A stretch of 63,981 nt of DNA, filler included, from Stramenopiles sp. TOSAG23-6 (Eukaryota), in NCBI GenBank assembly GCA_900128565.1. It is 4 parts of 4 records of this genome, joined end to end, with 100 filler letters (N's around TTAATTAATTAA, not from the genome) between each part and the next. Parts side by side here need not be neighbours in the genome. Positions count along the whole stretch, not along the records: positions 33,252 to 49,536 come from LT636094.1; 3 more parts are not named here. One strand, given 5' to 3'. This document shows positions 6,873-62,465 of the stretch, in pieces (the stretch's first letter is position 1; the number at the start of each line of letters is the position of its first letter). The position numbers were made by a program, and so were the translations under genes. The notes beneath the pieces are model-generated. The model worked only from the letters and a program-made list of their open reading frames with translations. It made no database searches and had not been told where the DNA came from.

Positions 6873-9744
6873 TTACACTGTCTCTGAATCATCTTTCCTT
6901 ACTATTAATTCTGCGACCACACCATTATTATCAGAAACACCTCCAACAGGATCCAATGCTCTCATTTGAATTACACTCTGTGTCTCCCAAGATTGAGGAA
7001 TTTCATATTGAAAATTGCCACTTTTAAACCATACAGCCTCAGTTGTAACAGTATCAGACCATGATGATCTGATTTTTTGCTCCTGTAGATAATCAATTTG
7101 CTTTTGGTCAGGTGTTCCAAGATAGTGAGAAACAACACTTGTAAAGTCTCCCATTACAATGTCAGTACCAGCTCTAAATATCTGGTTGATAGCCTCAACC
7201 TTGACCTCAGTAATGTGTTTTTCCTGGGCATTATCTTCAACTTTCTCTCCACTGCAAAGATCCACATTAGCCACTACAATGTTTGTGCTTGGTCTTAGTT
7301 TTAGTTCCAATTTTAACAAAAGTGTTTCCCTCTGTATTTCACAAAACTCTGCAGGAATCTTCTGCTTACTCTCCTCACCTGGTGATACATCCCAATCAGA
7401 ATTACGCCTCAATAAAAATGCTTGTAGATGAGTACGCTGTATCTGTTTACCATTACCACCTACATAGAGATTCCTCATGACTTTTTCATAGCATGGAGAA
7501 AAGTCAGTATGTCGGTCAAATAATGGTACTGTCTGCAAGGCTACAACATCTGGAGTATGTATTTCAAGTTGCTGTGCTAGAGTGTCACGAATGTATCATG
7601 AAAATATATTATGTCAAATTCGAAATTTGTTAGTATATTATAGAATTTGGTACAGAGAAATATTAACTTTGAAATTCATGATGAAAACGTGCATTTCTTC
7701 TGGCCTTCTTCCATCAGGGTTTACCAATCCCAAATTGATTGTTGCCACCTTAATTTTTGGATATAGACCCTTTTCACTTATTACTTCTCTACAGATTGGT
7801 AGTCCATAATTCACTTGATAAACTGGAAGAACCGCCTGGATATCTCTTACCATAAAGTAACCAGCTACTGTATCGGGGTAGTCACGATTCATACTCCAAC
7901 TATCGTATTTTGCTTCCGGCGTTTCATAAGATTTCCATTTTGCATTTGTTTTTGTTCTTCCTGGTGCTACAAGATTCAAAATGACACTTCCATGATATGA
8001 TCCATCATCAGTATTACCAAAATGAAAAGCTGGTTCTGTCGCATATCTATCTAAATAAACTGCATTCCCCATTACATTTCCATTTTCCCTTGGGTGTCTT
8101 TCTCCATCATATATTTCACCACCTATACGGTATCCATCTTCAAATATTTTTTCTCTTGCGTTCTGATCACGACATCCATGCCATAGCCATTCTAACTTGT
8201 CTGATACGTCTCTTTTTTTTAATTCTTCAGCTTTTTTGTAAAACGGAATCGATAGCTTTTCATTTTCACATACAATAACAGATTTTACCTCACGTTCGCC
8301 CCAAGCATTGTCCCATTCCCAACCTTCTCTTACCTGCAAAGTTTTAAATTTTCTGGCTGCAAATTCAAAGTGACTCTTGAGAAATGGATCTTTTTCTGTT
8401 GAAAATATTTCAACACAATGTGCCGAATGGGTTATCTTTGCTTCTCCTTTCGCATCGGACTGTCTGACACTTTTCTGGAGTGGTTCCGGAAGATGTCGTT
8501 TAGTTACATATTGCCATTTCAAAAATGCAGATTTTAATTTACGTGAAAGGAACTTTAACTTTTCTTCATGTAATGCCAAGAGTTTTTGTCGATCATTTAC
8601 TCCAAGTACCAAAAAAGAATGTTCATGTATCCCTAATTCTGGGTGAATTGCATTTAATAAACTTCTAATATGATTTTTTTTCAATGATACATTATTCCAT
8701 TCAACGAGCTGACATGTACTGTGAAAAATATGTAAATAAATATATCGTAAGATATGAAATTTGGTACAAAAAAAACTTTAAAATTGATGATGAAAAAGTA
8801 CGTGTATCAGCAAACAACTGCCTACTCTCTTCTAAACCAGGAAGTGGAAGAAAACTATCTTCAGTTCCAAGAAAATCCAATAGAAAACGTTGACGTGCTC
8901 GTTCTCTTTTTCTATACTTTTCTTGGAGAGGATCTAGATCAAGTAATGTGAAAAAATATGTCAAATTTGAAAATCCTCAGATATGAAATTCATTACAAAA
9001 AACGCTAACCCTAATTAAAATTAATGATAAAAACGTACAGATAAAAAGGGATACCTTTCAAAAGCTACAGCAACATTGTCATACATAACTTTAGCACCTT
9101 TCAATAGATTAATTTCAAGTTTTATCTTTTCTCGAGGATCCTTGCTTCCTTTTTCACGTGCTCGATGTATTGTGAAAAATATGTAAAATTCGAAATTCGT
9201 TAGGTATGGAATTTGGTACAAAAACAAAATTGAAATTTTACTGATGAAAAGGAAAACGCACAGGTACTTCAAGATGCCTAATTCTGCTTAAAGCATTTGC
9301 TTCATAATTTTTAAAAAGTCTTTCCATTTCGTCTTTTTTTTTTATTATTTGTACTTTGTCCTTGTTCATTTCTTCTTTGTACTTGTTTATTTCTTCTTTG
9401 TATTTTAACAATTCCGATAGCTTTTCTTCTAGAGCCATAATCTCTATTTGTTTTTTGGGTGTTCTTTTTCTTTGGTTCCTTTCATGAAGTATTTTCTCGC
9501 GTGTTTTTGTTACTTCTGCATCAAGATCCGGGTGTTTTATTAATTTTAATTTTGCTTCGTGAAGTTCCATAGAATGTAATGTACTTTCATGAAATTCAAC
9601 AATGACTTTCCTATCTTGAAGAATTCTCTGGAAAATCGCTTCATGATGTTCTCGACGTTCCGTCCTCAATTCATATTCTTTGGCGGAAAGTGCCCCATTC
9701 ACAGTGACAAAGTTTAGAAATAGTAATAAGATACATATTGACAT
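6873..9744 (-). CDS. Five-exon gene: signal peptide, coiled coil, PARP-like catalytic domain and degenerate EEP domain
   Basis: Five ORF pieces join in frame after removing introns 9165-9261, 8941-9038, 8714-8801 and 7591-7692. PARP-like WLWHGC..KIFEDGY..GNAVYL..VLPVYQVNY; EEP-like PDVVALQ, VMGDF, SD. Confidence 0.7.
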
Positions 9745-13197: not shown

Positions 13198-13497
13198 CAA
13201 AGAAGAATGAAAAAGTAGAACGTGTACGTTCAAATCAAGATAGTTCTGACTCTACCAATTTGCGAACAAATAATCCAGGGAAAAGCCATCTCAGTAGTAT
13301 AAGAAGCATATTTACACCAAAAGAAGAACCAATACCAGTAAAAAAAGTTTGCCCTGCAGCCAAATATCGCGCCAAGTTTTCTTTGTAGCTGCTACCCTGG
13401 TTTTATTAAAACACAAAATGATAAAAAATGAAATAACGTTTCAGTATGTTTCAAAAAAAATAATAAAAGCTTTTATAATTTATCTTTTTAGTGATCA

Positions 13498-15411: not shown

Positions 15412-15793
15412 TAGCTGTGATGACCAGTTATTTAGTCTAATATATTACTTGATATCTTTAGGATCTCGGGATGAACGACAGACGTAGGGTATGGATTATG
15501 GATTTGAAGGATTTTTGAGAATCTGATATATTTTCCGTGAACCGGGTACGTAGGCCTCTAGTCAATTTTTTGACATTCAATAATTCGAATGTCTGTACCC
15601 AATGAATGAGTCGCGACGACGATGCTAAAATATTGAAATAAATCTTGATCAACAGAAGTGCACATTAGTACAAGCAACTCACTCTCACAGTGTTTTAGTT
15701 TTCTGAATCAACAGCAATGAAAATAGCAGCGCGAAGAACTTAAATAATTTACGTGAAGTTTAATATTTTGTCAGACTAAAGTCTTTTAATATA

Positions 15794-16589
15794 ATGCCGT
15801 CAACATTTAAGGTCGGTGCGAAGGTACGAATTGGTGTTGATAAAGAAGGGACCATACGATTTATGGGCAAGACTCAATTTGCTCCAGGTGAATGGGTTGG
15901 CGTAGAGTTGAACAAAGCTCTTGGAAAGAACGATGGTTTTGTAAATGGGGTGAAGTACTTTGACTGTAAAAAGAAATTTGGTATATTTGTGAAGGAATCA
16001 CAGTTGACGTTAATCACAAAGACACGCAACACGACTACCAGAGTTACCCGCAGTGCTTCCAGAGCTGCAGCTGCGGCAACCACAAAGTCAAACTCACCGA
16101 CAAAGTCGCCATCAGAGAGTAGAGTCGCTAAAACACCTACGGTTGACGAGAGAAAACGCATTGCTCTTGCGCGAAATAAAGCCCGTCTTGAAGCAAAAAA
16201 AAAACTTAGTGATGCAAAAAAACGCCGTGAATCAGGAGTTAGCTCTCCGGGTAGTCCAACGCGATTGAAGAAGCCTACCGTAAGATCGACGTCACTTAGA
16301 CAACCTGTAAAACGATCTATAAATTCCCCCAAATATTCAAGTCAAACTAAATTGAGATCTGGTGTTGAAACCAAAACGTCTGAGTCTTTGTCAAACACAG
16401 TGAAAGAATTGGAGACTGTGAAAGCCGAATTGGTTCAGGTAAAGGCTTCTGCACTTGAAGCAGCAACTGAGAATACAAAGCAACTAAACAAAATGAAATC
16501 TGAATGTCAAGAAGCAAGAGAAGCTCTAATTGTTGCACAGTCAGCTGGAGGAGAAGCTGTGTCACTTAGTAATGAACTTGAAGCTACTA
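15794..16589 (+). CDS. Duplicate of the CAP-Gly gene, cut by the spacer
   Basis: CAP-Gly GKNDG motif; runs into the N spacer. Confidence 0.7.
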
Positions 16590-16689
16590 NNNNNNNNNNN
16601 NNNNNNNNNNNNNNNNNNNNNNNNNNNNNNNNNTTAATTAATTAANNNNNNNNNNNNNNNNNNNNNNNNNNNNNNNNNNNNNNNNNNNN
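16590..16689. other. Artificial contig spacer
   Basis: N44-TTAATTAATTAA-N44, giving stops in all six frames. Confidence 0.99.
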
Positions 16690-26708: not shown

Positions 26709-27809
26709 ATGGCATTACTGAGTACAATTCCGCTTTATCAGGTGGACGCTTTCGCCGAAGCCCCATTTGCTGGTAATCCGGCTGCTGTATGTTTATTGGC
26801 ACCTGGAGTTCAGCCCAGTGATGACGTTCTTTTGAAGATTGCTCAAGAAATGAACTTATCAGAAACTGCGTTTGTTCAAATAGTAGAAGGAGTTGATTTT
26901 AGCTCGGGTCGGAAATTTCGCTTGAGGTGGTTCACTCCAATGTGTGAAGTTGCTTTATGTGGCCATGCAACTATGGCGACTGCTTCTGTGATATTTTACC
27001 AAAAAGGAAATAAAAATCAAAAGATCGAGTTTGAGACAACCCAAGGCGCAGGCAGTCTATTTGCTTCTATTGGTCCAGTGGATAGTGGATATCAGACTGT
27101 TTGTATGGAACTCCCAGTCAATGCACCAACGTCATCAACTCGATACACACTCGAAAATATCTTGGTGAAGAGACTTGCAAAGGCTCTAGGTTCAAATATA
27201 TGTCCAAACATATTGTCACACTTGGTAGACGTTCAGTATTCTCAGACAACTAAGAAACTTTTACTTCGTCTTGATGATACGTTTAGTCGAAAGGAACTTG
27301 AAGATTTGAAGCCAAACATTTCTGATTTATTAGCCGCGACAAAAGGTAGTGACGGTGTAAAAGGTCTAATTATAACTCTACGAGGAAATGGAAAATATGT
27401 ATGTTTTATTTTTTTTCAAATTTTATTTTGTTTCATACGAAATTTTGTACCTAACGAATTTTTTTTTTCAAATATTTTTCCAAAATACATAATTTTTATT
27501 CAAGATATTTTGCACCCTGGGTAGGTATCAATGAAGACCCAGTGACTGGAAGCGCCCATACAGTTTTAGCTCCATACTGGAGTCTTCAATTAAACGTAAA
27601 AACTCTACATGCAAGGCAATGTGTACGTTTTATTTTTTTTCACGAATTTTTTTTCGTACGAAATTTTGTACCTAACGATTTTTTTTTTCAAATATTTTTC
27701 CAAAATACGTTCTGCCAGGGGTGGGGATTTATTCTTGGAAATTTGTGGTAAATTTCTGTCTGTCACTGGAAGCACTGCTTTAGTTTTTTCTGGGGATCTC
27801 GTATTGTGA
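26709..27809 (+). CDS. PBLD: PhzF/PBLD-family epimerase-like protein, three exons
   Basis: QVDAFAEAPFAGNPAAVC, EMNLSETAF, LRWFTP.CEVALCGHAT. Removing 27399-27490 and 27623-27710 gives KYNFYSRYFAPWVGINEDPVTGSAH and ARQCSARGG. Confidence 0.93.
27399..27490 (+). mobile_element. Type example of the introner-like non-AG intron (GT..AT, flanking AT repeat)
   Basis: TAT|GTATGTTTT..CATACGAAATTTTGTACCTAAC..GAAATATTTTTCCAAAATAC-like end..AT|AAT; removal restores YNFYSRYFAPW. Confidence 0.85.
27623..27710 (+). mobile_element. Introner-like intron, GT..GT, flanking GT repeat
   Basis: TGT|GTACG...AAAATACGT|TCT restores QCSARGG; the intron contains no AG. Confidence 0.85.
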
Positions 27810-33151: not shown

Positions 33152-33251
33152 NNNNNNNNNNNNNNNNNNNNNNNNNNNNNNNNNNNNNNNNNNNNTTAAT
33201 TAATTAANNNNNNNNNNNNNNNNNNNNNNNNNNNNNNNNNNNNNNNNNNNN
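33152..33251. other. Artificial contig spacer
   Basis: Same 100-nt N/TTAATTAATTAA/N linker. Confidence 0.99.
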
Positions 33252-33302: not shown

Positions 33303-34784
33303 ATGTGTCAACATTATCAATAAAGTTGGCGAGATAGATTCCTTCCAAACCTTTTACTTTTTCAAAATCACATTTTATGTAGGCAAATATTTCAATGATT
33401 TTGTTTTGTAACATGTTAGTGTACATGTAAATGTATTTTTTTAATATGTTTTTGTAATTTCAGGAAAAAAAAAATCAAAAAAAAAAAAAAAAAAATTTAA
33501 AAAGAAATTCAAAAAAAAAAAAATTAAAAAAAATATCGTTTTTTCAATGATAACATACACGTTCCTGCAAGATTTCGTCGATTATGTGGTAAACTGAGAG
33601 TATATCCTTTGCCTTCCGCATCTGATACATAAATATTTCCCCAATTTGATTTTTCGCCGATATGATTTACATGCAAAAACACGGAATCTTCAGAAGTATC
33701 CAAAATTGTATACGACTGTATTTTTGTACAATATTTCATTTTTTTTAGTAAAAATTGTTAGGTACAAATTTACGTACGAAAAAAAAATTCTGAAAAAAAA
33801 ATTGAAAAAAAAAATTGTTAGGTACAAAATTTCGTACGAAAAAAAAATTGAAAAAAAAAAACGTACATGTTCTTTTAAACCTTCAAATGGCATTTTTGCA
33901 ATATGAAAATGTTGACCACCATCACTTGAAAGATTCAATTCAACCGCTTCAGAGTTATGTGCTGTGACTTGTGCAACAAATAAAAACTTTGGTGTAAATA
34001 AAAATCGATTTCCACGTTTGACGAGAACTTTTGGTTGAGTTTTCCAGTAATCAGTTGTTTCTACAAAATCAATACGTTGATCCCAAAAACCAAATCTTTG
34101 ATGTCCAGATTTTACATTGAATTCTGTAGCGAAAATGGCATGTAGAGGGAGTCTATCCGCTTGTCCTCGTTCCAGATTATGTGCCCATTCAAACTGGACA
34201 ATATAATGTTGAAGAAATTTCCACGTCGCACCAAAATCTTCCGATAGGTACAAATTTTTGTAACAAAATCCTTCGCTTGATTTATTCTTACAGTTATCTG
34301 ACATGACTGCGGCCAAGATCAAATTCACATCTTTAGGATGCATTTTCATTTCAGTAAAGACCATCTTTTCATTAATTGTAGACCACGTTTTCCCACAGTC
34401 TTTTGTAGACCAATGAACTTTGTCTTTTGAAACAAGAATCGCAAAGTCTTTATTTACAGGACTTTGAACGATTTCAACAATTCCTTTTTCTTTTTGGAAC
34501 TTTTCAAGTCTTGATGTTTGATTGGTCCAACTTCGACCAGCATCAGATGATCGATACACAGTATTTTGTTCAGTCAGGAGAAGAACAGTTCGACTTTCCG
34601 CACCCATCCAAACCATATCTTTAACCTGTCCTTCAATCTCTTTCTCAGTGACGACAACATTTGCACTAGCACGACTAAGACTCGCTGCGGTTGAACTCAT
34701 TCCTGACGTATAATACGGTTGTGCTACAACCATAGAAAACAGTGAAATTATGAGTAGACAAGGCTTCATAGTATTTGCTTTCAT
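33303..34784 (-). CDS. Vps10/sortilin-family receptor, 5' part
   Basis: Signal peptide; BNR/Asp-box repeats (YRSSDAGRSW, STKDCGKTW, LYLSEDFGATW); GNIYVSDAEG..YTLSL; DFEKVKGLEGIYLAN. Introns 33716-33866 and 33372-33558. Confidence 0.88.
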
Positions 34785-35066: not shown

Positions 35067-36398
35067 ATGAATGCCTTATTACGATCCGTCGGAACATTAC
35101 CAATACGAAATAATGTTATGCGTTGCATGGCGACGCAATCTGTATGTTGACTTTTGTAATAATTCAGTTGGACTTGTGTCTCATGTTTTATTCTTTCCAA
35201 AATACTTTTACGAATCAACGTGTGTTTCTTTCTTTTTTTCTTTTTTACGCACAACTACGAACACATGTACTCATTTTATCCTCTTGAAATACACACATAA
35301 CTATTATACAATACAGCAAAACATGAAAACATTTCAAATTTACAGATATGACCCAGAAGGTTCTGCTAAACCTACACTACAATCATATGACGTTGATATG
35401 AACGAATGTGGACCGATGGTTTTAGATGCACTCATTAAAATCAAAAACGAACTTGATGCTACTTTAACCTTTCGTAGATCTTGCCGTGAAGGTATCTGTG
35501 GATCATGCGCAATGAACATTGACGGTCGTAACACACTCGCATGTCTTGCTCATATTGATACTGAGAAATCGGACTCTAAAATTTACCCACTTCCTCACAT
35601 GCACGTTCTCAAAGATCTTGTTCCCGATATGACCAACTTTTATGAACAATATCGTTCTATCGAACCTTGGTTACAGACAAAAGAAACCAAAGATGAGAAT
35701 ACTGAATGGTTACAAACAAAAGATGATCGTAAGAAATTGGATGGAATGTATGAATGTATCTTGTGTGCGTGTTGTAGCACATCATGTACGTTGTTCTTTT
35801 TGGAATTTTATTTTGGTCATTTTGGACATTTTGGAATTGTATTTTTTTTTAATTTGGTTTTCATCATACATTTGTTTGAAACCAAGCAGTAGTAGTAGTA
35901 TTCTTCAAACTATTCAAATGAGTGTTTTTGTAGAAAAAAGAATTCATATGATTCGATTTTGTATTTTTATGAATTTTTTGTAGTGTACCAATTTTGTCGT
36001 AACATTTTGTTGAATTTTTATATTTTTTCACAAATCAGGTCCTAGTTACTGGTGGAATCAGGATAAATACCTAGGTCCAGCTGTTCTAATGTACGTTTTT
36101 CATAATGAATTGTATAGGACTCATTCCATATTGTTGTTGTTTTTACTATGAAACATTTGTATCTAACAAAGAAATATATTTTTTTGAAAATATTTTCGTA
36201 CATGACATGCAAGCCTATAGATGGGTGGAAGATTCACGTGATTCAATGACAAAGGAAAGACTGGAAGCTTTAAATGACTCTTTTAAACTGTTTCGTTGTC
36301 ATACTATTATGAATTGTACAAAAACATGTCCTAAAGGGCTTAATCCTGGTAAAGCTGTGGCTCATTTGAAAAACAGAATTCATGAAGGCAATTTATAA
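35067..36398 (+). CDS. SDHB: Succinate dehydrogenase iron-sulfur subunit, four exons
   Basis: Exons 35067-35141, 35317-35785, 36039-36090 and 36209-36398 give [42 protein letters not shown] and [17 protein letters not shown]. Confidence 0.97.
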
Positions 36399-44504: not shown

Positions 44505-45842
44505 GTAGTAGTAGTAGTATTATTAGTAGTAGTATCAGTAGTAGTTGTATCATTATTAATAAAACCATTTTCAGTACATTGTAAATATTTTCTAATTTCA
44601 ACTAATTTCAAACAATTTGCCCAATCTAGAGCTGTTTGACCAGAGTTATCTTTACACAATACATATTGAGTAAAAAAATATACCATACAACAAAAAAATC
44701 GTTAGGTACGAAATGTTGTACAAAAAAAATTAAAAATTTTCAAAAAAAAAAATCGTCATCAAAATCATTAGGTACAAAATTTCGTATAAAAAATAAAATT
44801 CATTATACTGTCAATAACATACATTACATTTCTGTGATATTAAATATTGAACAATATTTAAATGTCCTTCCTTCACAGCATAGATGAGTGCATGGATTAT
44901 AAAAAAATATTTCAAAAAAAAAAAAAACGTTAGGTACAAAATTTCGTATGAAAAAAAATTAGACAAAAAATTAAAAAATGAAAACGCACATTTTCACCAG
45001 TTATATTATTTTGAAGATGTATATTAATGTTTGTTTTTTCAATCAAATCTGGAATGCAGTCCATGTTTTATAAACAATATATAAACAAGAAGTAAAATTT
45101 GTTACATACAAAATTATTTTTTTAATTAGTTTTGTACCTAACAACAAAAAAAAAAAAAAAAAAAAAAAAAAATTTAAACGATTTTTTTTTTTTTTCGGTA
45201 AAAAAAAAAAAAAAAATAAAACGCACATTGATTCTGGCTGCTTCGTGAATGCAATACACACCATGTGAATCTTTAGCATTAACAACAATTTCTGTTTATA
45301 TTGTGAAAAATATTGTACATTCGAAATAGGTCAATAAAAAACTTAAATTTCTTAGGTACAAAATGTCGTACGAAAAAAAAATTTAATTTGAAAAAAAGTC
45401 AAAAAATATTTTTTTTTTTTTTTTTTTAGGTTTAGGTACAAAATTCCGTATGAAAAAAAAAATGATAAAATACTTTACCTAAATCTATATAAACACGTAA
45501 GAGTTGATTTGCAATGTGGATTTGACCTTTACAAACGGCACATTGTAGTGGATAACGCCCTTTTTCATCCTTTTGAAGCAACCATGATGTAATCAGTGTT
45601 GTTGGTATAGTCTTATTTGTGTTGCTTTTGTTATTTGTGTCATGAGTTATAGTGTTATTGGAGACATAATTCAACAACGCAGTCATGACTTTAACCGCAC
45701 CTATGCGTGCTGCAAAATGAAGAGGTAAAAGTTCATTCATTGCTCTGGTATAATTACTATCATTTATATATGTCATTGTAGACGTATCATCATCAATTAG
45801 AATAGCTTGCCTCAGTACAGATAAAGCAGAGGATGATGTCAT
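40337..45842 (-). CDS. Large multi-exon protein: ankyrin repeats, Asn-rich tract, WW-like domain, low-complexity/coiled-coil C terminus
   Basis: LPLHFAARIG, VNAKDSHGVYCIHEAA, TGENALIYAVKEGHLNIVQYL, KDNSGQTALDWA; LPLGWSEFIDEDGDVYY. Frame is restored across introns 45296-45473, 44892-44989, 44663-44822, 42928-43036, 42692-42859, 42526-42635, 41759-41962 and 41051-41149; one junction near 45070-45226 is uncertain. Confidence 0.75.
44220..44558 (-). repeat. (AAT/GAT/ACT)n trinucleotide tract encoding poly-Asn/Asp/Thr
   Basis: Visible TTA/TCA/GTA triplet run inside ORF 43019-44686. Confidence 0.95.
45296..45473 (-). mobile_element. Introner-like intron, GT..AA, flanking AA repeat, two core copies
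   Basis: AAA|GTATTTT...CACAATATAA|ACA joins to the ankyrin motif VNAKDSHG in frame. Confidence 0.7.
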
Positions 45843-46374
45843 CGTTTACAAATGAATGATTCGAATGATTTAACTCTGATTTCTGTGTGGATTTTGATGT
45901 ATAGTATTCACTCGTTTGTTTTCTTCAAATCACCTACACAATCTCAAATGAATCTGACCAAATATTTCGATACACAGTAAAGTATGATATCGTTATATAG
46001 TATAATAATTATCAGTCTTCAAACATATACAAGAATTGATAATTATTTACTCGTGTGTGATTGTATTTTTTTACAGTACTTTTGGCTATACCTGTCAAAA
46101 ACATGAAATGACCTTTGTAAAAAAGTAACTGACAATAAAAAAGAAAACGGTGACTTGGAGCAGGTTTGCGCGCGCGGTCAGTAACTTTTACTCGAACAAA
46201 AAGTTCATTTTAAGTACAAAATTTATTACTTAAGCACCAACTGGTCACCTGACATTGTAAACTCATCTGATTTCTTTTTGTTGGCTTTGTTGTTGTCTCC
46301 ATCATATGCGCATTACATTTTTTACTTATAATAATTGTTGTATTGTTCAAAACCAACACTATAACACTATAACA

Positions 46375-47557
46375 ATGTTACAATATTCCATATTCCTATT
46401 TGTAATTGTTATGATGATGATACTAAACAATACAAATGGAGCTGAACAACCACCACCAGATGCAAATATCGCAAATATCGCAAATATCGCACCGCAACAA
46501 CAACAACAACAACAACAACAACAACCTTGTGACGTCGTAAGCGTACGACAACTACTACCAAGGGGACAACTTGAAAGTATTATTTGGGCAATGAGAACTG
46601 GCCAATACTATCAGGACTTACCAATGACTCTTAGATGCAATAAAGAGGTTGCAATGGCTGCAGTGACAGGTGCAGATGCGGGGCATGCGATGAAATACGT
46701 GCCAAAAGAAATGAATAACGACGACTACAGTGAAGTTGCGTTTGCGGCAGTAAAGTATAAAGGTTATAACATCCAATTTGTCTCCAAAGAGAAAATGGCG
46801 GATAAATTCCAAGAACTTTTACTTACCACTATGACATCGGAAATATTTTACCACCCATCAATAACAATCTCAACTATTGGTCGATATCTTGTTTGTTTTC
46901 ATCATTTAATTTTATATTCATTTTTTTTTCATAGTAAATTTCGTACCTAACAAAAAAAAATTGAAATATTGTGTCACAATACGTCCACAATCCGATTTGA
47001 TTTCTAAATGTTTACATTTTCCTTTTATTGGAAGGACTAATGCGACTCATGCTGATTTTGAGGGGAGAGCCTGGAGAGCAAAACTTGTGTATGTTTTTTT
47101 TGATCTTTACATTTTTTTTTTCGTACGAAATTTCGTACCTAACAAAAATTGTAAAAAAAATTTGAAATATTTTTTACATATTATTATTCAAAACATCGCC
47201 AATTGGAGAGAAAGAAATAATCTTCCAGTAAACGAATCAATTACACAAAATATGAAAAGACTAAAGAATCGACAAATAAAAGCTTTGTGGCCATTGAAAT
47301 CACTTGACAGGTTTGTTTTTCAAATCAAAATTGAATATTTAAATTTTTTTTTTTTTTTTTTTTTTTCATAGGAAATTTTGTACTTAACAATTTTTTTTTT
47401 CAAAAAACATTTTTTTTTACAATACATTGACGATCTTAAGAAAGGAATTTTATCATTTCTTTATAATAATGAAGATTTGAAAATGAATTTTGGTTTTCCT
47501 GCTATTTGTTGTTTAACTGGAGAGGAGCAAAATGAAGCTAAAGTAGAGGAAGGGTAA
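46375..47557 (+). CDS. Signal-peptide protein with poly-Q and DUF4116-like repeats, four exons
   Basis: Hydrophobic N terminus; LRCNKEVAMAAV and EVAFAAVKYKGYNIQFVS. Introns 46891-46984, 47089-47196 and 47311-47427 keep the frame. Confidence 0.65.
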
Positions 47558-48101
47558 AAATTCTTGATTAATGTATTATTTTTGTTGTTTGTCATCAACA
47601 TAAATTTTAAATTTGTATATACTATAAATCAAATGACTCATTCTGAAATTCTGTACTGTTTTGAATTTTTTTTTGGTCTTTTTTTTTTTTTTTTTGATCG
47701 ATGGAACAAACCTGTTATTGTTGTACAAAACGGCTGCATAAATATAAAGCCAGTGTTCCCGGTACATCTCGTACCGGCTAATACGCGGGAACTCATTCGT
47801 TCGTCTATCGTGTATTCGTTGTATACAACAAGTCTACGTAAATACAAAACAAAAGGACGTGCGATACTCATAAAGACCATAAAGAATTGTGTGTGTAGTA
47901 TTAGCAATTATTAGATATCACACATCATTACTAATCATTACTAATACGGATACCATCATAATTAAGACTTAAGTTACGATATACGACCAAGGATATACGG
48001 ACAAATTGATTTGAACAACTACCTACATATAGTAGTACTACATAGACTACATATATAAATAGAGAACTTTATCAACGTACTTACGTACAGTACAGTACGA
48101 T

Positions 48102-49447
48102 ATGAGTTTCATTGGATTCTTTTCAAAGAAGAAACGTAATCAAGATGAAACTTCAACTGAGACACAAGAAGAGAAGGAACAGAAAGATCGACAACAAAAC
48201 AAACAAAACAAACAAAACAAACAAAACAAACAAAACAAACAAAACAAAGAATCACTTTATTCGGACAGTTCATACAGTACGCGACATCCGGCGAAAAGTC
48301 TTCAAACCAATCGAACCTCCCAAAGTTCTCAATTGTCAACTGAACATTTGTTACCATCAAAGTCATCAAAGTCATCATCAACGTCATCAACGTCATCAAC
48401 GTCATCAAAGTCTTTACGTGGATCAACACTACGAAAAAAGCACTCCCCAAATTCAATACATTCCCCAAATTCAATACACAGTTCTCGTAGTTCAATAGCA
48501 ACAAAATACTCCCTTAGTAATTATAGATATGATAGAAATTTCGGCTCTGGGAATAATGCTACTAAAAGTCGTTCACTTTTAACAAGTCATTCAATTCGTT
48601 CAATTCGTTCAACTCCTTCGCCAAATAGTTTGAGAGAAGATGTAATTGATTTTTTTTTTACAAAAAAATCGAAATATTTTTTCGTACGAAATTTTGTACC
48701 TAACAAATTTTTTTAGAATTTTTTTGAAATATTTTTCCAAAATACATGTAATTGATTTTCCAACACTTGAACTTGAACATACTTCTAATTCTAATGAAAG
48801 CTCAATTGATGAAAATGAAGAATATATTATGACTAACCCTAACCCTACTACTACTCACAATTCACCTAATAATCGAAATAACTCTAGTAATAGCCCTAAC
48901 CCTAATAATAACACAAACACAAATTTGTCTAAAGAACAAAGTTTAAAAAGTTTTGTGTGTTATACTAACCCAAAATCGAAATATTTTATACCAAAATCAA
49001 ATGTAAAACTTTTCTTTTTTATATTTCTCGTTGTAGTTGCTATAGCTGGTGGTACGTTTTATATCATTTCAATTTTAAATTTACTTTCAATTTTAAATTT
49101 AAAATTTACTTTTTTTTTTTTCAATTTTTTTTCAATTTTTTTTTGTAATTAAAAAATTTTTTTTTTTGTAATTAAAAATTTTTTTTTTTTTTTTTGCGTA
49201 AAAAAATTTCATACCTAACAAAATAAAAATTGAAATATTGTCCAAAAATAAATGTATTGTTACCTATACAAGAAAAGATGATGTGACGTTTGGAGTGTTT
49301 AAAGCATCAAAAATACAATCAAAAATACAATCAAAACTTTCGAGACGATTAGGTACGGAATTTCGTACGAAAAGTGTTCAACAAGAAGAATGTGTTAATG
49401 ATACATGGGTAAAATCTGTTCAAGATGCATGTGAAGAAACTGTAGAT
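48102..49447 (+). CDS. Ser/Asn-rich single-pass membrane protein, 3' truncated
   Basis: ORFs join in frame across introns 48642-48747 and 49052-49253; transmembrane segment LFFFIFLVVVAIAGGIV. Confidence 0.65.
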
Positions 49448-49536
49448 GTACGTTTTCAAAACTTTTTCATAGAATTTTTTTTTTTTTTTTTCATAAAATT
49501 TTTTTTTTTTTTTTTTTTTTTTTAAGAATTTTTTTT

Positions 49537-49636
49537 NNNNNNNNNNNNNNNNNNNNNNNNNNNNNNNNNNNNNNNNNNNNTTAATTAATTAANNNNNNNN
49601 NNNNNNNNNNNNNNNNNNNNNNNNNNNNNNNNNNNN
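49537..49636. other. Artificial contig spacer
   Basis: Same 100-nt linker. Confidence 0.99.
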
Positions 49637-49683
49637 AAAAAAAAAAAAAAAAAAATAGGGAAAAAATTTCCTATGAAAAAAAT

Positions 49684-49729
<46 letters not shown>

Positions 49730-49766
49730 ACAATTTTATGAAATTGGTGAAATAATGAAAATGTAC

Positions 49767-52211
49767 AAATGTGCTTAAAAATGAATCACATAAATCTAAT
49801 GTTGTAGAGGATGATGAACACAATGATGTTAATAATTCAATGATTGTGCCAACAGTGCTACTTGGCCATTTATATGACAAGTCAATTGGATTATGAATGT
49901 GTTCCTATATTTGTAGAAAATATTTCAAAATTTAAAAAAATATTTTGTTAGGTACAAAATTTACTACGAAAAAAAAAATGAAAAAAAAATGAAAAAAAAA
50001 TTCCAAAATTTTTTTTAAACAAAAGATAAAAAAAGATAAAAAAAATATTCTTATTACAACACGTACCAACATTTTTGGTGTCATATGCCGGGGACACAAA
50101 ACTGTTTTCATAATTGAATATAAAATGTTTTGAACTCTTTCATCACTTTTTTCAATTTTTTCACTTTTTTCAATTTTTTCAATTTTTTCAATTTTTTCTT
50201 GATGTTGTCGACAAAATCGAACATGAATTATTTTTTCACGCCCATTACCGGGTATCAGCTGGTCAGGCACATTTTCTATAGTAAAACCTAGTAAAGATGC
50301 AATTTCTCTACTTATAGTAGGGTCATACGGTAATGTTTCAATAAGCATGTATTTTGGAAAAATATTTCAAAAAAAATCTAAAAAATTTCGTTAGGTACAA
50401 AATTTCGTACGAAAAAAAAAATTCGATTTTTTTGTAAAAAAAATAAAAAAATAAAAAAATAAAACATACATACTATCAAGACAATCAGCAACAGATAAAA
50501 TTTGTTCGGTAAAAATAAAAGGTTGAAATTNTTTTTTTTTTTTTTTTNAAANTTTTTTTTCTTCTTCTTTTGAAATTTTCGTTTTTTTTGGACTTTCTTG
50601 ATTAGGATTAGGGTTAGGGTTTTTTAATGCAGGTATGCATTTCATTACTAAATTCCACATCCCTACATAATCAATGACATTACTTGTATCAATAGCATGA
50701 TATCCATTACTTCCAGGTTGTTTTAAAGGAATTTCCATACAATGGTAAAAAAATATTTGAAAAAAAAATTCAGAATTTTTGTTAGGTACGAAATTTTTTT
50801 ACGAGATTTTTTTTACGAAAAAAAAAAAAAAAAAAAAAATGTAGGATAAAAAAATACATGCAATTACCAAATGTAAAAAAACAGCGTATTGTATTGTTTT
50901 TGACAGATTTTTGTAGACGAATAAATAATGGTGTCCAAACATTTTGAAGCGTTTTCGCAAATGAAGGTGAACCCACCATATTATCGATTGCATTGCTTGT
51001 ATTGGTTGTAGTAGAGTTAGGGTTAGGGTTAGGGTTAGGGTCGTCGAAAATTTCGTCACTAGTTAGTGATGCAAAAGCGCCAACAGGCCCTTGACATTCT
51101 AAATATATGGCATGCTGTTTGATCCCATCGATATCATCATTCGATATTTCAAAATTTTCAAAATTACATGTAGAAAGTATTGTGAAAAAATATTTCAAAA
51201 TTTACTATAAAAAAAAAATTTGTTAGGTATGAAATTTTTTTACGAAATTTTTTTACGAAAAAAAAAAATTTAAATTTGAAATTTAAATTTGAAATTCATA
51301 TAAAACGTACAACATCAAATAGAGTTGGGTTTATATACGTCACTGTAGTGTTTGTGAGGGAAGAGTCAACGGAGGAAACCCCATGTTTAAGCCAATCTAC
51401 AAGAAGATGTGATAAACGTCCATGACCTGCACTTTGGTCTGAGAGTCTTTTTGCACGTACATAAATTATGAAAAAATATTTCGAAAAAAAAAATCTAAAA
51501 AAAATTGTTAGGTACAAAATTTCGTACGAAAAAAAAAATCATACAAAAAAAAAAAAATAAAACGTACATGTTTGTAGGGTCTTTTGATGATTTTGATGCT
51601 TTTGATGCTTGTGCCCCGACAACATTTTTGATTGTAGACACGTTCAAGGTATTTTGCTGCGTATTTTCAGTCATGTTTTTTTCATCGAATGTATTTTGTT
51701 GCGTATTTTCAGTCAAAGTTTTCTCTTTGGTCTCTGCTGCTTCGATGAATGTCATGCTATTGTGTTCTGCTCGATTTGTTGTATTTGTTGTATGTGTCAT
51801 GTTTTGCTTTGTATTATTAGACATATTCTTGCTTCCATCATGTGTTATATAACCTACTCTGACTCCTAAACGATTCTGTAACTCCTCATTGAAATGTTCA
51901 CTGAAGTCCTCATCTAGAGAGTCCTCATCTAGAGCTTTCGAATGTTTTGCTGGTGGTTGTGGAGGTAATACAACGTCATCCGATGGTGTTGCATCTGATG
52001 GAGAAAGTGTATTACTCTGTTTACCTCGTTGATCAAGTAGTTTTTTCACTAATTTATCTCTGGAATTTGATGTATCGAATGCAGCGTCAACATCCACGGT
52101 TGGTTGTACTACATTACTTTCGCCTTTGTGAGTTGCAAGTTTCTGTTCTGTTTCAACAGTACAAATGAACTGCTCTTTGTTGATATCGTCATTACGCATA
52201 GAAGAAGACAT
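49767..52211 (-). CDS. Multi-exon protein of unknown function, 3' truncated
   Basis: Exons join in frame across 51175-51310 (TT), 50737-50857 (AT), 50347-50469 (AT) and one AG intron ending near 49905. The first junction (about 51465-51567) is ambiguous. Confidence 0.6.
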
Positions 52212-52554
52212 TATGTACTATTTGATACTGATTTCTTGCTACTTTGGTAAGAAAATTAAGTAAATTTATGTTGTAGATTTTATGATTTTATGTACGAGAA
52301 AAATAAAAGAGGGCAAACAAAATGTTCAACACTTGAGAGAAAATTAGTTTGAATTCCAGAATTCAAATTTTCAAAAAACAAAATCAGGATTTCGTGTTAT
52401 TTAGACTTAGTAAAGCCCGCTCCTCCTCCCTCTCTCTCTCTCCTTGAGCACTCAGTCATTACACGCTTTTAGCTTTGAATATAGTAAATATTTAGTAACA
52501 CTATTGTTTGTTGTAGATGTTTAGTATAACTCACCCGTTTTAAATCTAATACAA

Positions 52555-54135
52555 ATGCAAACACACGTGATATATCTATTCATCATTTGCATAGTTTCAT
52601 GTATTGTGTATGTTGAAATGTTAGACACTGACGAGCATAAACGACATGTCAAACCAGAAGTCAAACCGGACGTCATGTCAAGTCTCCCACGAATTCCACT
52701 TCACTTTAAAGCTAAAATTAAAGTGGATTTTCCCTACAAAGATTCATTTTCTATGCTAGAAGAGTCTTTTCGTACTACATTTACAAATACAACAACGCCG
52801 AATATACCAACGTTAGAAAGGCCGTTCTTATGCTTACTTCACTATGACTATCTCAACCGAAGAATGCGTGAAGATTATTATTATCTACACTCAGAAACAC
52901 CTCAACGTTTTTATACATCAATTAAGCTATACAATGAAGGAAAGAATTATATGATTTATCATAGAATTAATGATGTTCACTTCTTATCAAGTCCTGCAAG
53001 TTGTTTTATTTCGCCAACAAATGGTCGCATGATGCCTGCAGGGGAATGTACGTTTTTTTACCTTGTTTTGTTTTTTTTTTCGTACGGAATTTTGTACCTA
53101 ACAAAAAAAATCCAAATTTTGAAATATTTTTCGAAAATACATATTTTGATCCACAACTTGAGTTTTATGGAGTGACCAACATCACAATTAGGTGAGTCTC
53201 CAACCCTAACCCTAACCTGCATTTCACCCTTTTTTTTTTTTTTTTCTATGAAAAGTTAAAGTTTTAAAATTTGTCTGTTATTTTCTATATAATATAATAT
53301 AATATAATATAATATAATATAATATAATATAATATAATATAGTCTTCAAAATTCAAATATATCAATTGATACCTAACATTTTTTTTTTAAACCTATGAAA
53401 TTTTGTACCTAACAATTTTTTTTTTTTTTTTTTTTTAAACCTATGAAATTTCGTACCTAACAAAAATTAAATTTTTAATTTGAAATATTTCAATGAGATA
53501 CATTGGGGCCAAAAATAAACAGCATGTATGTTTTATTTTATTTTTTTAACAAAAAAATCGAATTTTTTTTTTTGAAAATTCTGTACCTAAAAATTTTTTT
53601 TTTGAAATATTTTTTTCCTAACGAAATTCGGTACCTAAAATATTTTTTTTGAAATATTTTTCCAAAATACATACTGTCCATGTAGAACATTGGAACACAA
53701 TCTTTAACAATGCTGAATATGACTTTTTTATTTCTCGAAAGACAAAAAAAATCATTCAAATTAAACAAATTCATTCAAATTTTACATTTTTCGATTTTCA
53801 AGAAGGACCCAATACTGTTGGAGATGTATGTTTTTTTTTCGTACGAAATTTTGTACCTAACAAAAAACGAAACAAAAAATCAATATGAATTTCAAATGTT
53901 TTTTTTCGTACGAAATTTCGTACCTAACAATTTTTTTAATAATTTTTTTTGTAATTTTTTTACAATACATGCTTTATTTATTCCCCATTTAGTTAGTGCA
54001 GTTGAATGTGAACCAATTGGTGGGCATCATCATAATAAAAATCAGTACCAAAAATTTCCTACAAAACAAAATTTTGCATTTTCTAAAATTAATTTAAAAA
54101 AAGCCGAAGAAAAATATAAAAAAAAAAAAAAATAA
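52555..54135 (+). CDS. Secreted or anchored ependymin-related (EPDR-like) protein, five exons
   Basis: N-terminal hydrophobic segment; LHYDYLNRRMRED; C-terminal FFDFQEG...DALFIP...C pattern. Introns 53048-53142, about 53192-53498, 53526-53672 and 53826-53970. Confidence 0.5.
53288..53341. repeat. (ATATA)n pentanucleotide microsatellite inside an intron
   Basis: About 11 tandem units read directly. Confidence 0.95.
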
Positions 54136-54548
54136 TTTTGAAAAAAGGCAAAGAAAAATATTAAAAAAAAATATAAAAAAAAAAAAAATTATGATTGTAT
54201 TTCAAAAAATAAATGAAACCTTCAAATACTTGTAACTTTTGTTTATACATTTTTGTTTTTATAGGAGACTTGACAAATTAATTGTTGGTTTTTTGGGGGT
54301 ACATCGAATCGGCTGTAACACGAAATATCTAAAAAAGATCTAAAACATCCAATAAAAAATTGAGCAAAACACGAAATACGTAGTATATACCTGACCTGTC
54401 ACCCACAAAAATTGACCTGTGGCTGGCGCGCGTGTCATTGCGATTGATCATGGCCATTGGTTATTGGTTTGGACCGCCTCGACGCTTTCTTCATTTACGC
54501 TACTCGCGCTATCTCTCAACACTAGTCTTCTCCTCAGCTTACTTAAAA

Positions 54549-54890
54549 ATGACAGTGAAGCGCCGTAATCATGGAAGAGCACGCAAGAATTGTGGCTCCA
54601 AGGGTCTCTCAAAGCTCATTGTTTGCGATGGCTGTGGTAGCCGCGTCGCCAAGGATAAAGCTATTATCCGTTTTCAAGTTCGTGGCATTGCGGATGCATC
54701 GTCAATGCGTGACTTAAAAGAAGCCTCGGCGTACGAGAACTACCAAATCCCTAAAATGTACCAGAGATTGGTTTACTGCGTTGACTGTGCTGTTCATCGC
54801 CGTATTGTACGTGGTCGTTCAAAGAAGGATCGTAAGAATCGTGACCCTCCAATTCGCCGGCGCAGACAAGAAGCGAAGACCAGCAAATAA
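54549..54890 (+). CDS. RPS26: 40S ribosomal protein S26 (eS26), intronless
   Basis: MTVKRRNHGRA..C..C...VAKDKAI.RF...IPKMY..L.YCVDCAVHRRIVRGRS. Confidence 0.97.
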   Translation: MTVKRRNHGRARKNCGSKGLSKLIVCDGCGSRVAKDKAIIRFQVRGIADASSMRDLKEASAYENYQIPKMYQRLVYCVDCAVHRRIVRGRSKKDRKNRDPPIRRRRQEAKTSK

Positions 54891-55463
54891 ACTTTCATTA
54901 TTGATTGAAAACATCTCAAAAAGGGAGATATTTTACCTGTATTCTACAATGATACTCCGAGACTTTTTTTTAATGAAATGAAATGAAATAAAGTTGATAG
55001 ATAAGAATATTCTTTTTCTGTAATCTAAAGTTCTGTTGGCTTTTTACTTTTTTTTTTTTTGGTTTTCATACGAAATTTTGTACCTAAGCAAAAANTTNGT
55101 TTTTTTTTTNGNTNAANTTTTTTCTTACTACACAAATCACAAAAGGATTTTGTGTTAAAGGAATACAACACTTACTCTTGATGATGATGCCTGTGCTCGT
55201 GTTGAGGTCGCAACTTTGAGGTCACAACTTTGCGAAAACGAAAACCACAGGAAGAATACTATTACATAATTCATTTATTGTGTTTGTTGACGTAAATTAT
55301 TACGGTAAATTAATGACGACGTTACGGTGACACGTAGTACAGACACAAATCGGGCGCTGCTACGCCGCATTTGAATGACGTTTTGCCTTAAGGCGTCGGA
55401 GAAAAACGCAAATAAACAACACAAATTAATCAACATTAATTAAGATCCTGGTCCTGATTAAAC

Positions 55464-56696: not shown

Positions 56697-58886
56697 CTAA
56701 ATATATCCAGAGGTAACTCTTCGATCTTTATCGACTCCTTGAGCATCCTGCTCGCTAATAGTACCATCTTTTACTGCAGCTTCTGCTTCGGCAACACTAA
56801 CACTCATTCGACTCACTCGTCTTGATCTTCCTTTACTGGTATCCACTTCTGATGAAAGCATTATCACATCAATATTTGCTGCCTCTCTTGTAACTGAAGG
56901 ACCGTCTTCTTTTTTCAACCCATCACCACTTTTCCCTTTACGATGGTAACATTTGAAGCAGAGAAAAAGTATAAGGGCTAACAATACTGCAGCACCACAA
57001 ATAATTACAATATATATACCAAGGTTAATGCTTCCATTATTTCCCGATGTTGGTGCTGGTGTAGGAGCTAGTGTAGGTGTTGGTGTTGGTGCTGGTGTAA
57101 GTGCTGGTGTTGGTGCTGGTGTTGGTGCTGGTGTTGGTGCCGGTGTAGGTATTATACACTCGACAAGTTGATGAATACTATTATCTAATGTTGTTTCTGT
57201 ATTATAGATTGCTTTGCATTCTTGACATTGAACATGATCTATACATGGTTTACAAATTGGTACAAGAATATCATAATAATTTTGCATACTACCATCGCTG
57301 TTACACCAATTGGACAGATCTTGTTTAAAGCGAATACAACCTTGGAACATTTCAGTTGGAGTGTTGACATTCGATACATTCCAAGAATTGATTTTTCCAT
57401 TGAATTTTGATGCGTCAAAAAACATTCTATCCATGTTGGTTACATTTCCAGTGTCCCAAATTAGGTCCTGATTGAACGCAGTACACCCTTCAAACATATG
57501 ATTCATAGTAGTTACTTTTGATGTATTTGAAAATGTGATAACGCCATTGAATGATGTGGCTTGTCGGAACATAGACCCCATATTCAAAACTTCACTTGTA
57601 TCGAAATTTACATTCTGATTGAAGGCAGTAGCCCCACTAAGCATCCACTGCATAGTAGTTACCTTTGACGTATCGAAATTTACTTCCTGATTGAACTTCT
57701 TAGCATTATGAAACATACTTTCCATAGTAATTACCTTTGACGTATCGAAATTTACAACCTGATTGAATGATCTGGCTTGGTGGAACATATTCGCCATATT
57801 CAACACTTCACTTGTATCGAAATTTACATTCTGATTGAAGGCAGTAGACCCTTGAAACATATTTGCCATAGTAGTTACTTTTGATGTATCGAAATTTACT
57901 TCCTGATTGAAGTTAGTAGCCATGACAAACATATTTGCCATAGTAGTTACTTTTGATGTATTTGAAAATGTGATAACGCCATTGAATGATGGGCATTGTT
58001 GGAACATCGACGTCATATTCAAAACTTCACTTGTATCGAAATTTACATTCTGATTGAAGGCACTAGCCAATGTAAACATATTTTCCATATTAGTTACCTT
58101 TGACGTGTCGAAATTTACTTCCTGATTGAAGTTAGTAGCCATAAGAAACATAGTGTTCATATCAGTTACCTTTGACGTATTTGAAAATGTGATAACGCCA
58201 TTGAATGATGTGGCTTGAAAGAACATACCCGACATATTCAAAACTTCACTTGTATCGAAATTTACTTCCTGATTGAAGTTAGTAGCCATAAAAAACATTT
58301 GTCTCATATTAGTTACTTTTGACGTATCGAAATTTACTTCCTGATTGAAGTTCTTAGCATTAAAAAACATAGAGCTCATATCAATTACCTTTGATGTATT
58401 TGAAAATGTGATAACGCCATTGAATGATGTGGCTTGAAAGAACATAGACGTCATAATCAAAACTTCACTTGTATCGAAATTTACATTCTGATTGAAGGCA
58501 CTAGCATCCCTAAACATGCTCCCCATGCTTGTGACATTTCCAGTGTCCCAAATTAGTTCCCGATTGAACGCAGTACACCCTTGAAACATATTATTCATAA
58601 GAATTACTTTTGATGTATCCCAGTTCGTTATTTTTGGATTACAATCAGTAAGACTTGGATTAGACATTAGGGATGACATACTCATTATCTGAGATGTATC
58701 CCAGGTATTTGGTACTTCAGTACTTTTGTTTATTTCACATTCTTCAATCAATCTCACCTGGAGTTCATTGAAATTTTCTGGGGTAAAAGTATTGGCAAAC
58801 GTAAATGTTGAAAGGGGTAGTATGATTACAAGCACATTGAAAATATTTGCACTTCTGACTCGGAGTGACCTCGGAAATACCTGCAT
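56697..58886 (-). CDS. DUF285/BspA-like repeat surface protein with a PTPA stalk and one transmembrane helix
   Basis: Many (W/F)DTSKVTxMxxMF..A..FNQ repeats, (PTPA)n, TM segment [21 protein letters not shown], signal-like N terminus. Confidence 0.9.
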
Positions 58887-59165
58887 AGCCAAATGAGTTG
58901 GATTGAAATTCTTTGTAATACTCTAGCTAGTACGGTATTTTATTGTATTTTATTATCGGATGTTATCAAGGAGCCAGTATTTCTACATGTAGTAAGCCAT
59001 AAGTCTTACCAGTGTAAACAAAATTTCATGAAAAAACATCGCTCCTGTCGACAATTTTCAATTTAAATTTGACATTTTTTTTGAAATATTTGAATGGTGT
59101 TTTCTCCTCTTCTGTCTATTTTTTTTTGAAACCAAAAGTGGAATTACCACAAAGTCACTTCAATC

Positions 59166-61187: not shown

Positions 61188-62465
61188 ATGACTTTGATAA
61201 CACCAGAAGCTGTTGAAGAAGCCGAAGACTTAATCGACGATGGAATGTTTCAAGAAGCAGCATTGCTTGTTGAGACAGCTATTGCATCTTTAGGAGATCT
61301 TGAGATGCTTTCACGTGCTGCATGTGCGCGTGGTCAGGCATTTCTTGGACCTCTTGTGCGCAAGATCATCGACCCTACACAGGAAAATCCACACCAGGAT
61401 ATGTTCAAAGAACCATGGAAAATGTTTCATCTAGCTCTCAAACTTGATCCGGATAATGAACTTGCCGCTTCGAACATCAGGAATATGTCTGGTGTGATGG
61501 GAGAAGGTCCAGACGCAGAAATTGAGCCGAACCATTCTGAGACATTCGACGTAATCATTGTTGGTGCTGGTGCATCAGGCGTTGGTGTAGCGCTGTCTTT
61601 GACAAAAATATTTGGTCTAGACCCTACACGGGTTTTGCTTGTCGAACGAGGCAAAGCAGTTGGTGAAACATTTCGTCGTTGGCCTAAAGAAATGCGTTTT
61701 ATTTCACCCTCTTTCAATCAACAAGGTTGGACCTCATCCTTTGACCTAAATTCTGTGGCTTACGGGACATCGCCTGCCTACACACTTGGCGCTGAGCACC
61801 CGACTGGTATCCAGTATGCACGTTACCTATCAGCTCTTGCGGATGAAGCTAATTTAAATATGAGAACTCTGACTGAGGTCACTGCAGTCAGACCATTTGC
61901 TGATGGTGTATGTTTTATATGAATTTCTAATTTAATTTTTTTTTTTGATTTTTTTTCATACGAAATTTCGTACCTAACAAATTTTTTTTTTATAGAAAAT
62001 TTTTGAAATATTTTTTCACAATATGGAATGGTTTTGAGGTTGATGTTACCGCAGCAAAAGGAGCTTTGGGATTACCCGAAACACTTCGTAGTCGATATGT
62101 AATATGGGCGGCAGGTGAATTTCAATATCCTACGTCTAGTATTCCATGTTTGTTCCAATGATACATTTCAAATATTTTTTTTTTTTTGGTTTTTTTTCAT
62201 ACGAAATTCTGTACCTAACAAAATTTTTTTAAATTTTTTTTTTACCGAAAAAAAAAAAAAAATATTTTTTCACAATACATTATTTCCTGGATCTGACTTA
62301 TGTCTTCACAACTCTTCAGTACGTAGTTGGACACAACTCCCTGGAAATGACTTTGTAATTATTGGCGGTTTTGAGAGTGGAATGGACGCTGCATCTAATC
62401 TTGCACTGAATGGAAAGCGGTGCACTGTTGTGTCTTCAACGCCTCATTGGAATGTTCAGGACGAT
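61188..62465 (+). CDS. FAD/NAD(P)-dependent oxidoreductase (Pyr_redox_3-like) with a TPR-like N terminus; 3' part missing
   Basis: DVIIVGAGASG, FISPSF, EHPTG..YA.YL. Introns 61908-62026 and 62148-62280 give VIWAAGEFQYP and PLFPGSDLCLHNS; IIGGFESGMDAA. Confidence 0.85.

Follow-up and report, generated by a model that had tools for sequence, protein, structure and literature searches.

The window analysed here, a stretch of 63,981 nucleotides from Stramenopiles sp. TOSAG23-6, contains introns that can be cut at more than one pair of positions with the same resulting mRNA, and the intron flagged at 47311 raises the question of which register is used. A preliminary description had pointed out that a flanking repeat lets most of these introns be read as GT..AT, TG..CA, or AT..AC, and that junctions with mismatched repeats could tell the registers apart. 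The organism, a marine protist, seems to excise thousands of repeated introns that begin with GT and mostly close with AT in place of the usual AG. The window is composed of four contigs, joined by N linkers with an all-frame stop spacer (16590-16689, 33152-33251, and 49537-49636). For one gene of the same genome, the closest named protein bears a EukProt label suggestive of a marine stramenopile of the MAST-3 group, which is a label and not a phylogeny; further named protein matches come from oomycetes, ochrophytes, and slime moulds.

An intron family with two-nucleotide flanking repeats

The intron sample was taken from the window and 80 further stretches of the same genome (724 kb), which hold 345 motif clusters. 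Ends were called for 317 of them and 182 copies were retained, with 163 of the 345 clusters removed before counting for weak ends, N, contig ends, or duplication. The calls rely on element-internal bases alone, and the flanking dinucleotides were left unscored. A looser set (n = 260) contains clear miscalls and is left out of all counts.

The introns are about 100 nt long and share a 20-nt core that has 4852 exact matches in the 21.1-Mb genome (0 for the reversed control), a number that overstates the unique copies because of duplicated contigs in the assembly. The core ends in GTACCTAAC, a branch-site-like consensus that is present in 152/182 copies at a median distance of 38 nt from the intron end. 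This box is the predicted branch site, which would pair with the canonical GUAGUA of U2. The donor dinucleotide is GT in 169/182 copies; the remaining 13 calls start with AT (5), GA (4), GC (2), TT (1), or GG (1), some of which may be miscalls. The last dinucleotide is AT in 136 copies, AG in 13, TT in 13, GT in 9, and another one in 11. By these counts most copies lack the YAG acceptor of a U2-type intron, and the family, as far as its sequence tells, is not canonical GT-AG and behaves like a U2 intron with an altered acceptor. Many similar introns lie at unrelated sites, as is characteristic of introners. Inverted complementarity between the two ends extends over 3 bp in 122 copies, 4 bp in 76, and 5 bp in 4, and may or may not represent terminal inverted repeats. 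The copies are very likely those of an introner-like element, with the major (U2) spliceosome excising them in the GT..NN register.

The claimed register ambiguity is real, as the upstream and downstream dinucleotides are identical in 133/182 copies (permutation mean 97.9, sd 3.4, maximum 110 in 2000). Among the window copies the flanks match in 16 of the 22 that were called, 13 of these being AT/AT, and 16 copies of the sample carry matched pairs other than AT or AG, for example TT or GT. Copies with matched flanks have better-conserved ends (p = 2.5e-5), to which miscalls could contribute. Covariation and end conservation agree in supporting an element that would insert with a 2-nt target-site duplication. 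Where the upstream dinucleotide departs from AT in its first base only, 7 of the 11 changes fall on third codon positions (27% expected, p = 0.013) and 6 are silent. This codon-phase bias is expected of an exonic copy, whereas an intronic one would have no cause for it. A single register is possible in 14/182 copies, and right shifts (TA..TG), which the first reading had overlooked, leave the mRNA unchanged in 89/182.

RPS26 (window 54550-54885), part of EF2 (L091), and a 2021-codon Prp8 frame (G000:C84) are free of family introns; formate-tetrahydrofolate ligase (FTHFS), by contrast, carries seven. Family introns may be depleted in highly expressed genes. No highly expressed gene with a mismatched junction came out of a search of GTPases. 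At about 48630-48770, the intron and the exon that follows it open with the same 12 bases, which together with AT make a repeat of 14 nt, far above the usual 2-nt duplication. Elsewhere in the window, positions 249-3111 recur in inverted orientation at 13479-16341, and the ORFs of the two are identical; amplification or an assembly artefact is the probable cause. A 741-codon open frame (56697-58922, minus strand) consists mostly of tandem repeats of 24 residues each and has a hydrophobic stretch at its C-terminus, and its product is taken here to resemble BspA-like surface proteins.

A U1 snRNA with three altered bases

The 5′ end of the one U1 found in this genome reads AAACGUACAUG and differs in 3 of its first 11 bases from the Rfam consensus AUACUUACCUG. 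The altered bases face exon position -1 and intron positions +4 and +7, where they match the T, Y, and T of the introns, respectively, and the U1 5′ end is complementary to CAT^GTAYGTTT (^ marks the exon end). They pair at -1, +4, and +7 in 161, 179, and 181 of the 182 copies, for which canonical U1 reaches 9, 3, and 1. Position -1 was unused in intron calling; +4 and +7 were used, but the consensus had been fixed before U1 was brought in. The three changes occupy exactly those three positions where the consensus of the introns fails to match the complement of canonical U1, a coincidence of 1 in 165 by position alone. The duplex energy is -9.4 kcal/mol for the altered U1 and -2.4 for the canonical one. 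With respect to register, U1 forms on average 10.05 of 11 pairs at GT, 2.99 and 5.86 at shifts of -1 and -2, and 3.19 and 7.5 at +1 and +2, and in 181/182 copies it fits best at GT.

The genome search returned a single U1 sequence at two places that are identical across the U1 gene. The copy on L021 aligns with RF00003 over model positions 1-166 including the Sm site, at 54.1 bits (E = 5e-13; gathering cut-off 69.5). In this copy the motifs of loops I and II have diverged, and the folding z-score is only -1.9. It lies in a cluster (L021 9-645, G000:C1146) in which U5, U2, U1, and U4 share one strand and succeed one another in tandem, 2, 23, and 5 nt apart, and which may be transcribed as a shared precursor; U6 is found apart from it on L023. 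The GUAGUA of U2, loop 1 of U5, and the ACAGAGA of U6 are all canonical. A variant U2 was ruled out as an explanation, since its branch-pairing region is canonical. A 17-nt U1 pattern gave 40 loci in metagenome contigs, whose best BLAST pieces against the snRNA cluster reach at most 35 nt and were judged to be chance.

It could be argued that the GT register is correct while the U1 found here is a minor variant or pseudogene, and that an unassembled canonical U1 does the work, as in Fritillaria. The score under the cut-off, the diverged loops, and the incomplete assembly are in line with this. EF1a is absent among the 14 of 24 GTPase loci that were read, so the genome is incomplete and a canonical U1 could be missing from the assembly. 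The canonical 11-mer ATACTTACCTG does have 7 genome matches, but this is the chance level (10 for the control), and the one place that was checked is not U1. No other U1 came out of the genome search, in which 41 of 253 candidates were scored. The U1 that was found sits between an intact U2 and an intact U4, and its changes coincide with the departures of the intron consensus, which renders the pseudogene explanation improbable. That U1 is altered to read these donors, and that the introns use the GT register, is highly probable on the sequence evidence, and the recoded U1 suggests that the splicing machinery itself may have adapted. U1 pairing alone does not fix the cleavage site.

Junctions with mismatched repeats

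Where the two flanking dinucleotides differ, the registers predict different spliced bases (Table 1). The coordinates and codons of the four junctions singled out earlier (47311, 9165-9261, 61908, and 35142-35316) are confirmed and their mismatches exist, but several of them separate the registers less than had been claimed. The junctions at 9261 and 35142 exclude a 2-nt shift, whereas a 1-nt shift leaves the peptide unchanged; 35142 is also uninformative on AT ends, as its own end is AG. At 61908 the 2-nt-shifted reading is again GT..AT, so GGG in the mRNA would be compatible with a GT..AT intron; U1 forms 10 pairs at the called donor and 6 at the shifted one. At 47311 the alternatives TG-CA and AT-AC are wrong, as the shifted readings are GG..CA and AG..AC, and U1 makes 9 of 11 pairs at GT compared to 4 and 5 at the left shifts.

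Table 1. Introns, host gene, and snRNA genes discussed in the text. Positions refer to the window unless L021 is given; mismatches are upstream/downstream dinucleotides.
Feature	Position	Strand	Ends and remarks
Family intron	9165..9261	-	CT^GT..AT, mismatch CT/AT; CCT Pro, His CAT only under 2-nt shift
Family intron, sortilin/Vps10 gene	33716..33866	-	GT..AG, mismatch AT/AG; His vs Gln
SdhB intron 1	35142..35316	+	GT..AG, mismatch CT/AG
SdhB intron 2	35786..36038	+	GT..AG, mismatch AT/AG
SdhB intron 3	36091..36208	+	GT..AT, without AG end; excision restores conserved frame
Host gene of flagged intron	46375..47557	+	~290 aa, three family introns, frame open in GT register
Host gene intron 1	46891..46984	+	GT..GT, mismatch TT/GT; Leu, vs Arg under 2-nt shift
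Host gene intron 2	47089..47181	+	best reading GT..AT, mismatch GT/AT
Flagged intron	47311..47427	+	117 nt, phase 2, AG^GT..AT^T, mismatch AG/AT
Family core in flagged intron	47369..47388	+	branch-like box ending TTAAC
Family intron, flavin oxidoreductase gene	61908..62026	+	GT..GG; GGT vs GGG, silent
U5	L021 9-126		tandem cluster
U2	L021 129-325		tandem cluster
U1	L021 349-508		tandem cluster
U4	L021 514-645		tandem cluster

In the flagged intron, the spliced codon should be AGT (Ser) in the predicted GT register, as opposed to ATT (Ile) after a shift, and the predicted branch A would be position 47387, 40 nt from the 3′ end. The product of the host gene has a hydrophobic N-terminus, a polyQ stretch, and DUF4116 repeats (PF13475, E = 1.5e-8), and no homologs were found when its first exon was searched among longer proteins. 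The boundaries of its second intron are less certain, with eight boundary pairs that keep the frame; U1 pairs 11/11 at 47089. Four seawater metatranscriptome runs contain 5-9% of the words of window 45200-55050, too few to serve as evidence. An AG/AT reading near 25150 was dropped in favor of an AT/AT reading four bases upstream that fits better.

Conserved residues separate the registers more sharply. In the signal peptide peptidase gene (L007 1356-1457, mismatch GC/AT), the GT register gives Ala and the left shifts give Val and Met. The corresponding column in 120 homologs holds Ala in 96, Gly in 19, Ser in 5, and Val or Met in none, although one of the 96, P0001, is probably the same gene as L007. 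P0001 is the closest public model; it runs into the L007 family intron and stops, missing the GT..AT junction.

FTHFS (L013) was compared with 30 bacterial homologs, the ends of its seven introns being set by hand. At the CT/AT intron, the GT register keeps a Pro that is present in 30/30, and the 2-nt shift yields His (0). At the AT/AA intron it keeps a His found in 30/30, and both left shifts yield Gln (0). At the AT/AG intron it keeps Leu (25/30), with Val in 0. Right shifts create a stop and replace a Pro found in 29/30, and all seven introns are consistent with one register.

In SdhB, the 2-nt left shift at 35142 creates TAG immediately after the 25-codon presequence. At the second intron, the Cys of the CxxCxxCxxxCP motif is kept only at GT or +1, and left shifts turn it into Gly; Cys-Pro-Ser is present in 68/68 pattern-matched bacterial homologs (12 of 80 were unmatched by the pattern). 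The two AG-ended SdhB introns (35142-35316 and 35786-36038) are long and degenerate with family-like ends retained, which suggests old copies that acquired AG. One junction points against GT: in the PhzF intron 27399-27490, the GT register gives Asn and the +1 shift Asp, which we take to be the usual residue there. A candidate Trp junction in L069 gave no homologs.

Stop codons were counted at 153 framed junctions, that is, those with one open frame after masking three bases per side. The GT register creates 0 stops, -1 creates 0, -2 creates 1, and +1, +2, and +3 create 5, 7, and 16. The peptide changes at 18 junctions at -1 and 29 at -2. The 1-nt left shift at non-AG ends is excluded by two junctions alone.

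This 1-nt shift is the TG..CA register, in which palindromic ends (ATGTA..TACAT) would guide excision, maybe free of the spliceosome, as for the nonconventional introns of euglenids. It leaves the peptide unchanged at 135/153 framed junctions without a single stop, and its 3-bp inverted ends are those counted in 122/182 copies. It would, however, place Val (0/120) in signal peptide peptidase, Gln (0/30) and Val (0/30) in FTHFS, and Gly for the Cys of SdhB. Inverted repeats of 5 bp are limited to 4/182 copies, donor and branch site carry motifs of the ordinary U2 type, and U1 matches the GT register, so that excision at TG..CA is very improbable.

Even less can be expected of an NN..AC register, in which the intron would start at the upstream dinucleotide, end with AC, and be removed by the minor or a relaxed major spliceosome. 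Its mRNA is identical in the 133/182 copies with matching flanks. In the portions of the papers drawn on here (PMC13326754, PMC11282704), AT-AC ends form a terminal pair isosteric to G-G, and Fritillaria borealis has AG-AC as its main class. With a 2-nt shift most copies formally become AT..AC introns, which gives them a likeness to U12-type AT-AC introns. Against this, the register breaks the FTHFS Pro (30/30) and His (30/30), the Ala of signal peptide peptidase, and the SdhB Cys, creates stops at 35142 and in L032, and leaves U1 with 5.9/11 pairs. U12 signals are lacking as well: the RTATCCTT donor and the TCCTTAAC branch site are each found in 0/182 copies, as is TCCTTRAY, and U12 and U6atac gave no match at E <= 0.1 in the incomplete genome. 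The absence of the U12 donor had been noted before and extends to RTATCCT at shifts 0, -1, and -2 in all 182 copies, and the conclusion that these are not ordinary minor AT-AC introns stands.

It is scarcely more credible that the acceptor is edited to AG before splicing or that registers vary among the introns. The 13/182 calls with a non-GT start and the GT..AT reading of 61908 two bases to the left would allow for it, but TT, GT, CT, and AA ends would each require different edits, and all seven FTHFS introns fall into one register.

The GT register, which the preliminary description had favored, is backed by U1 pairing, homolog residues, and stop counts. Because U1 pairing can be combined with conserved residues at mismatched junctions, the ambiguity is resolvable without cDNA. 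Three independent tests at the DNA level decide it, with high confidence, in favor of GT..NN.

Acceptor choice and comparison with known systems

At the 3′ end, the earlier suggestion that AT is actively preferred holds in part: the acceptor leans to AT or AG, but a preference of AT over AG is not supported. Departures from AT/AT are found on the exon side in 22 copies and on the intron side in 7 non-AG and 7 AG cases, an asymmetry with p = 0.004 when the AG cases are left out and p = 0.12 when they are included. Many flank mismatches look like silent drift in the exon copy. Five copies have exons that end with AG; 3 of these retain an AG acceptor, AT is present solely at 47311, and that mismatch could stem from a change on either side. 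From these sequences, the acceptor seems to favor A in its penultimate position (-2) and either T or G in its last (-1). A scanning rule for the first AG or the first YAT was rejected, as an earlier AG is skipped in 59/182 copies and an earlier YAT in 165/182; the conserved 3′ arm or the distance therefore probably sets the acceptor.

U2AF35 was not among 16 CCCH matches and no Prp18 candidate was found, both in an incomplete genome. A changed Prp8 α-finger was rejected, as the key glutamine, which presumably corresponds to yeast Q1594, and its neighbors are as in human, save for nearby W to F and K to R changes. Near human positions 1250-1254, Prp8 (L086, G000:C84) reads TAGQA where human has ASGST, with 4/5 residues differing in well-conserved surroundings. 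The role of the α-finger glutamine is treated in a preprint that is drawn on in part (bioRxiv 10.1101/2025.06.16.659908).

The element runs GTAY..AC between 2-nt direct repeats that are mostly AT. In the proposed mechanism, the upstream repeat copy would stay in the mRNA and the downstream copy would form the last two bases of the intron. The altered U1 would pick the donor together with the exon-terminal AT, and the ACAGAGA of U6 and the GUAGUA of U2 would act normally on GTAYGT and CCTAAC. First-AG scanning would play no part in placing the acceptor, which would be set about 38 nt beyond the branch A by the T-rich 3′ arm that the copies conserve. The last base, mostly U, would dock on G+1 in a relaxed second step, as at yeast HAU sites without Prp18. 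AT would prevail because insertions occur at AT and an exon-terminal AT is rewarded by U1, with AT and AG both being good acceptors and TT and GT tolerated.

A more far-reaching and rather doubtful possibility is that the AG code of the spliceosome has been rewritten to AT, with the AU that replaced CU in U1 reading AT at the exon end as well as at the acceptor. If AG checkpoints such as U2AF35 and Prp18 were lost, a transposon that duplicates AT would thereby have become a perfect intron maker. The altered U1 forms 3.63 of 5 pairs at the 3′ junction compared to 2.84 for canonical U1, although the duplication alone would yield the same. U1 of fission yeast reportedly reads the acceptor AG, an observation attributed to Reich et al. 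in 1992.

The comparisons that follow concern those parts of the cited studies on which they draw. There are known introners in which the target duplication supplies one of the splice sites (PMC11282704). Those of Micromonas pusilla and other algae share with the present family the thousands of near-identical short introns and the splice site from the duplication; here, by contrast, only two nucleotides are duplicated, mostly AT, so that the acceptor taken from them is other than AG, and the inverted ends are only about 3 bp. U1 changes that match atypical donors have been described for Entamoeba (AACAAAC), Mastigamoeba (ACGUAC), and in part Physarum (bioRxiv 10.1101/2022.06.08.495308). U1 of Mastigamoeba balamuthi has the same ACGUAC core as here, and that of Entamoeba an extra A facing the U at +7, as is also seen here. 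The changes in both face intron positions, whereas here an additional change, C9 to A, lies opposite the final exon base, and the resulting AU in place of CU matches the AT at exon end and acceptor, unlike in Entamoeba and Mastigamoeba.

Fritillaria borealis shares introns that are transposon-like, mostly break GT-AG, and are handled without U12 (PMC13326754). Its ends are mainly AG-AC and AG-AT and very diverse, in contrast to the strict GTAYGT donor here, and its route involves U2AF duplication and m6A and not a U1 change, whereas here U1 is changed (PMC13326754). In prp18-deleted yeast, CAU and UAU are the most used non-G sites, poly(U) helps, and a pair between U-1 and G+1 is proposed (PMC10711555). 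The GU..CAU/UAU splicing by the U2 spliceosome is common to both, but HAU acceptors are an error class of a mutant in yeast and appear to be the main class here (PMC10711555).

Co-evolution of U1 at intron positions, introners, and noncanonical U2 introns have already been published. Literature searches, which covered titles and abstract openings and few subscription papers, returned no report of the C9-to-A change in U1 or of a genome-wide GT-AT class, and the C9-to-A change is most likely the part that will surprise specialists. If the reading is true, a free-living eukaryote would have GT-AT as its main intron class and a U1 altered opposite the last exon nucleotide. It would offer natural tests of the pairing of G+1 with U-1 as the norm, of the role of U1 in acceptor definition, and of whether an introner burst drives change in a core snRNA. 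Gene annotation would be affected as well, as in P0001, whose model runs into a family intron and stops.
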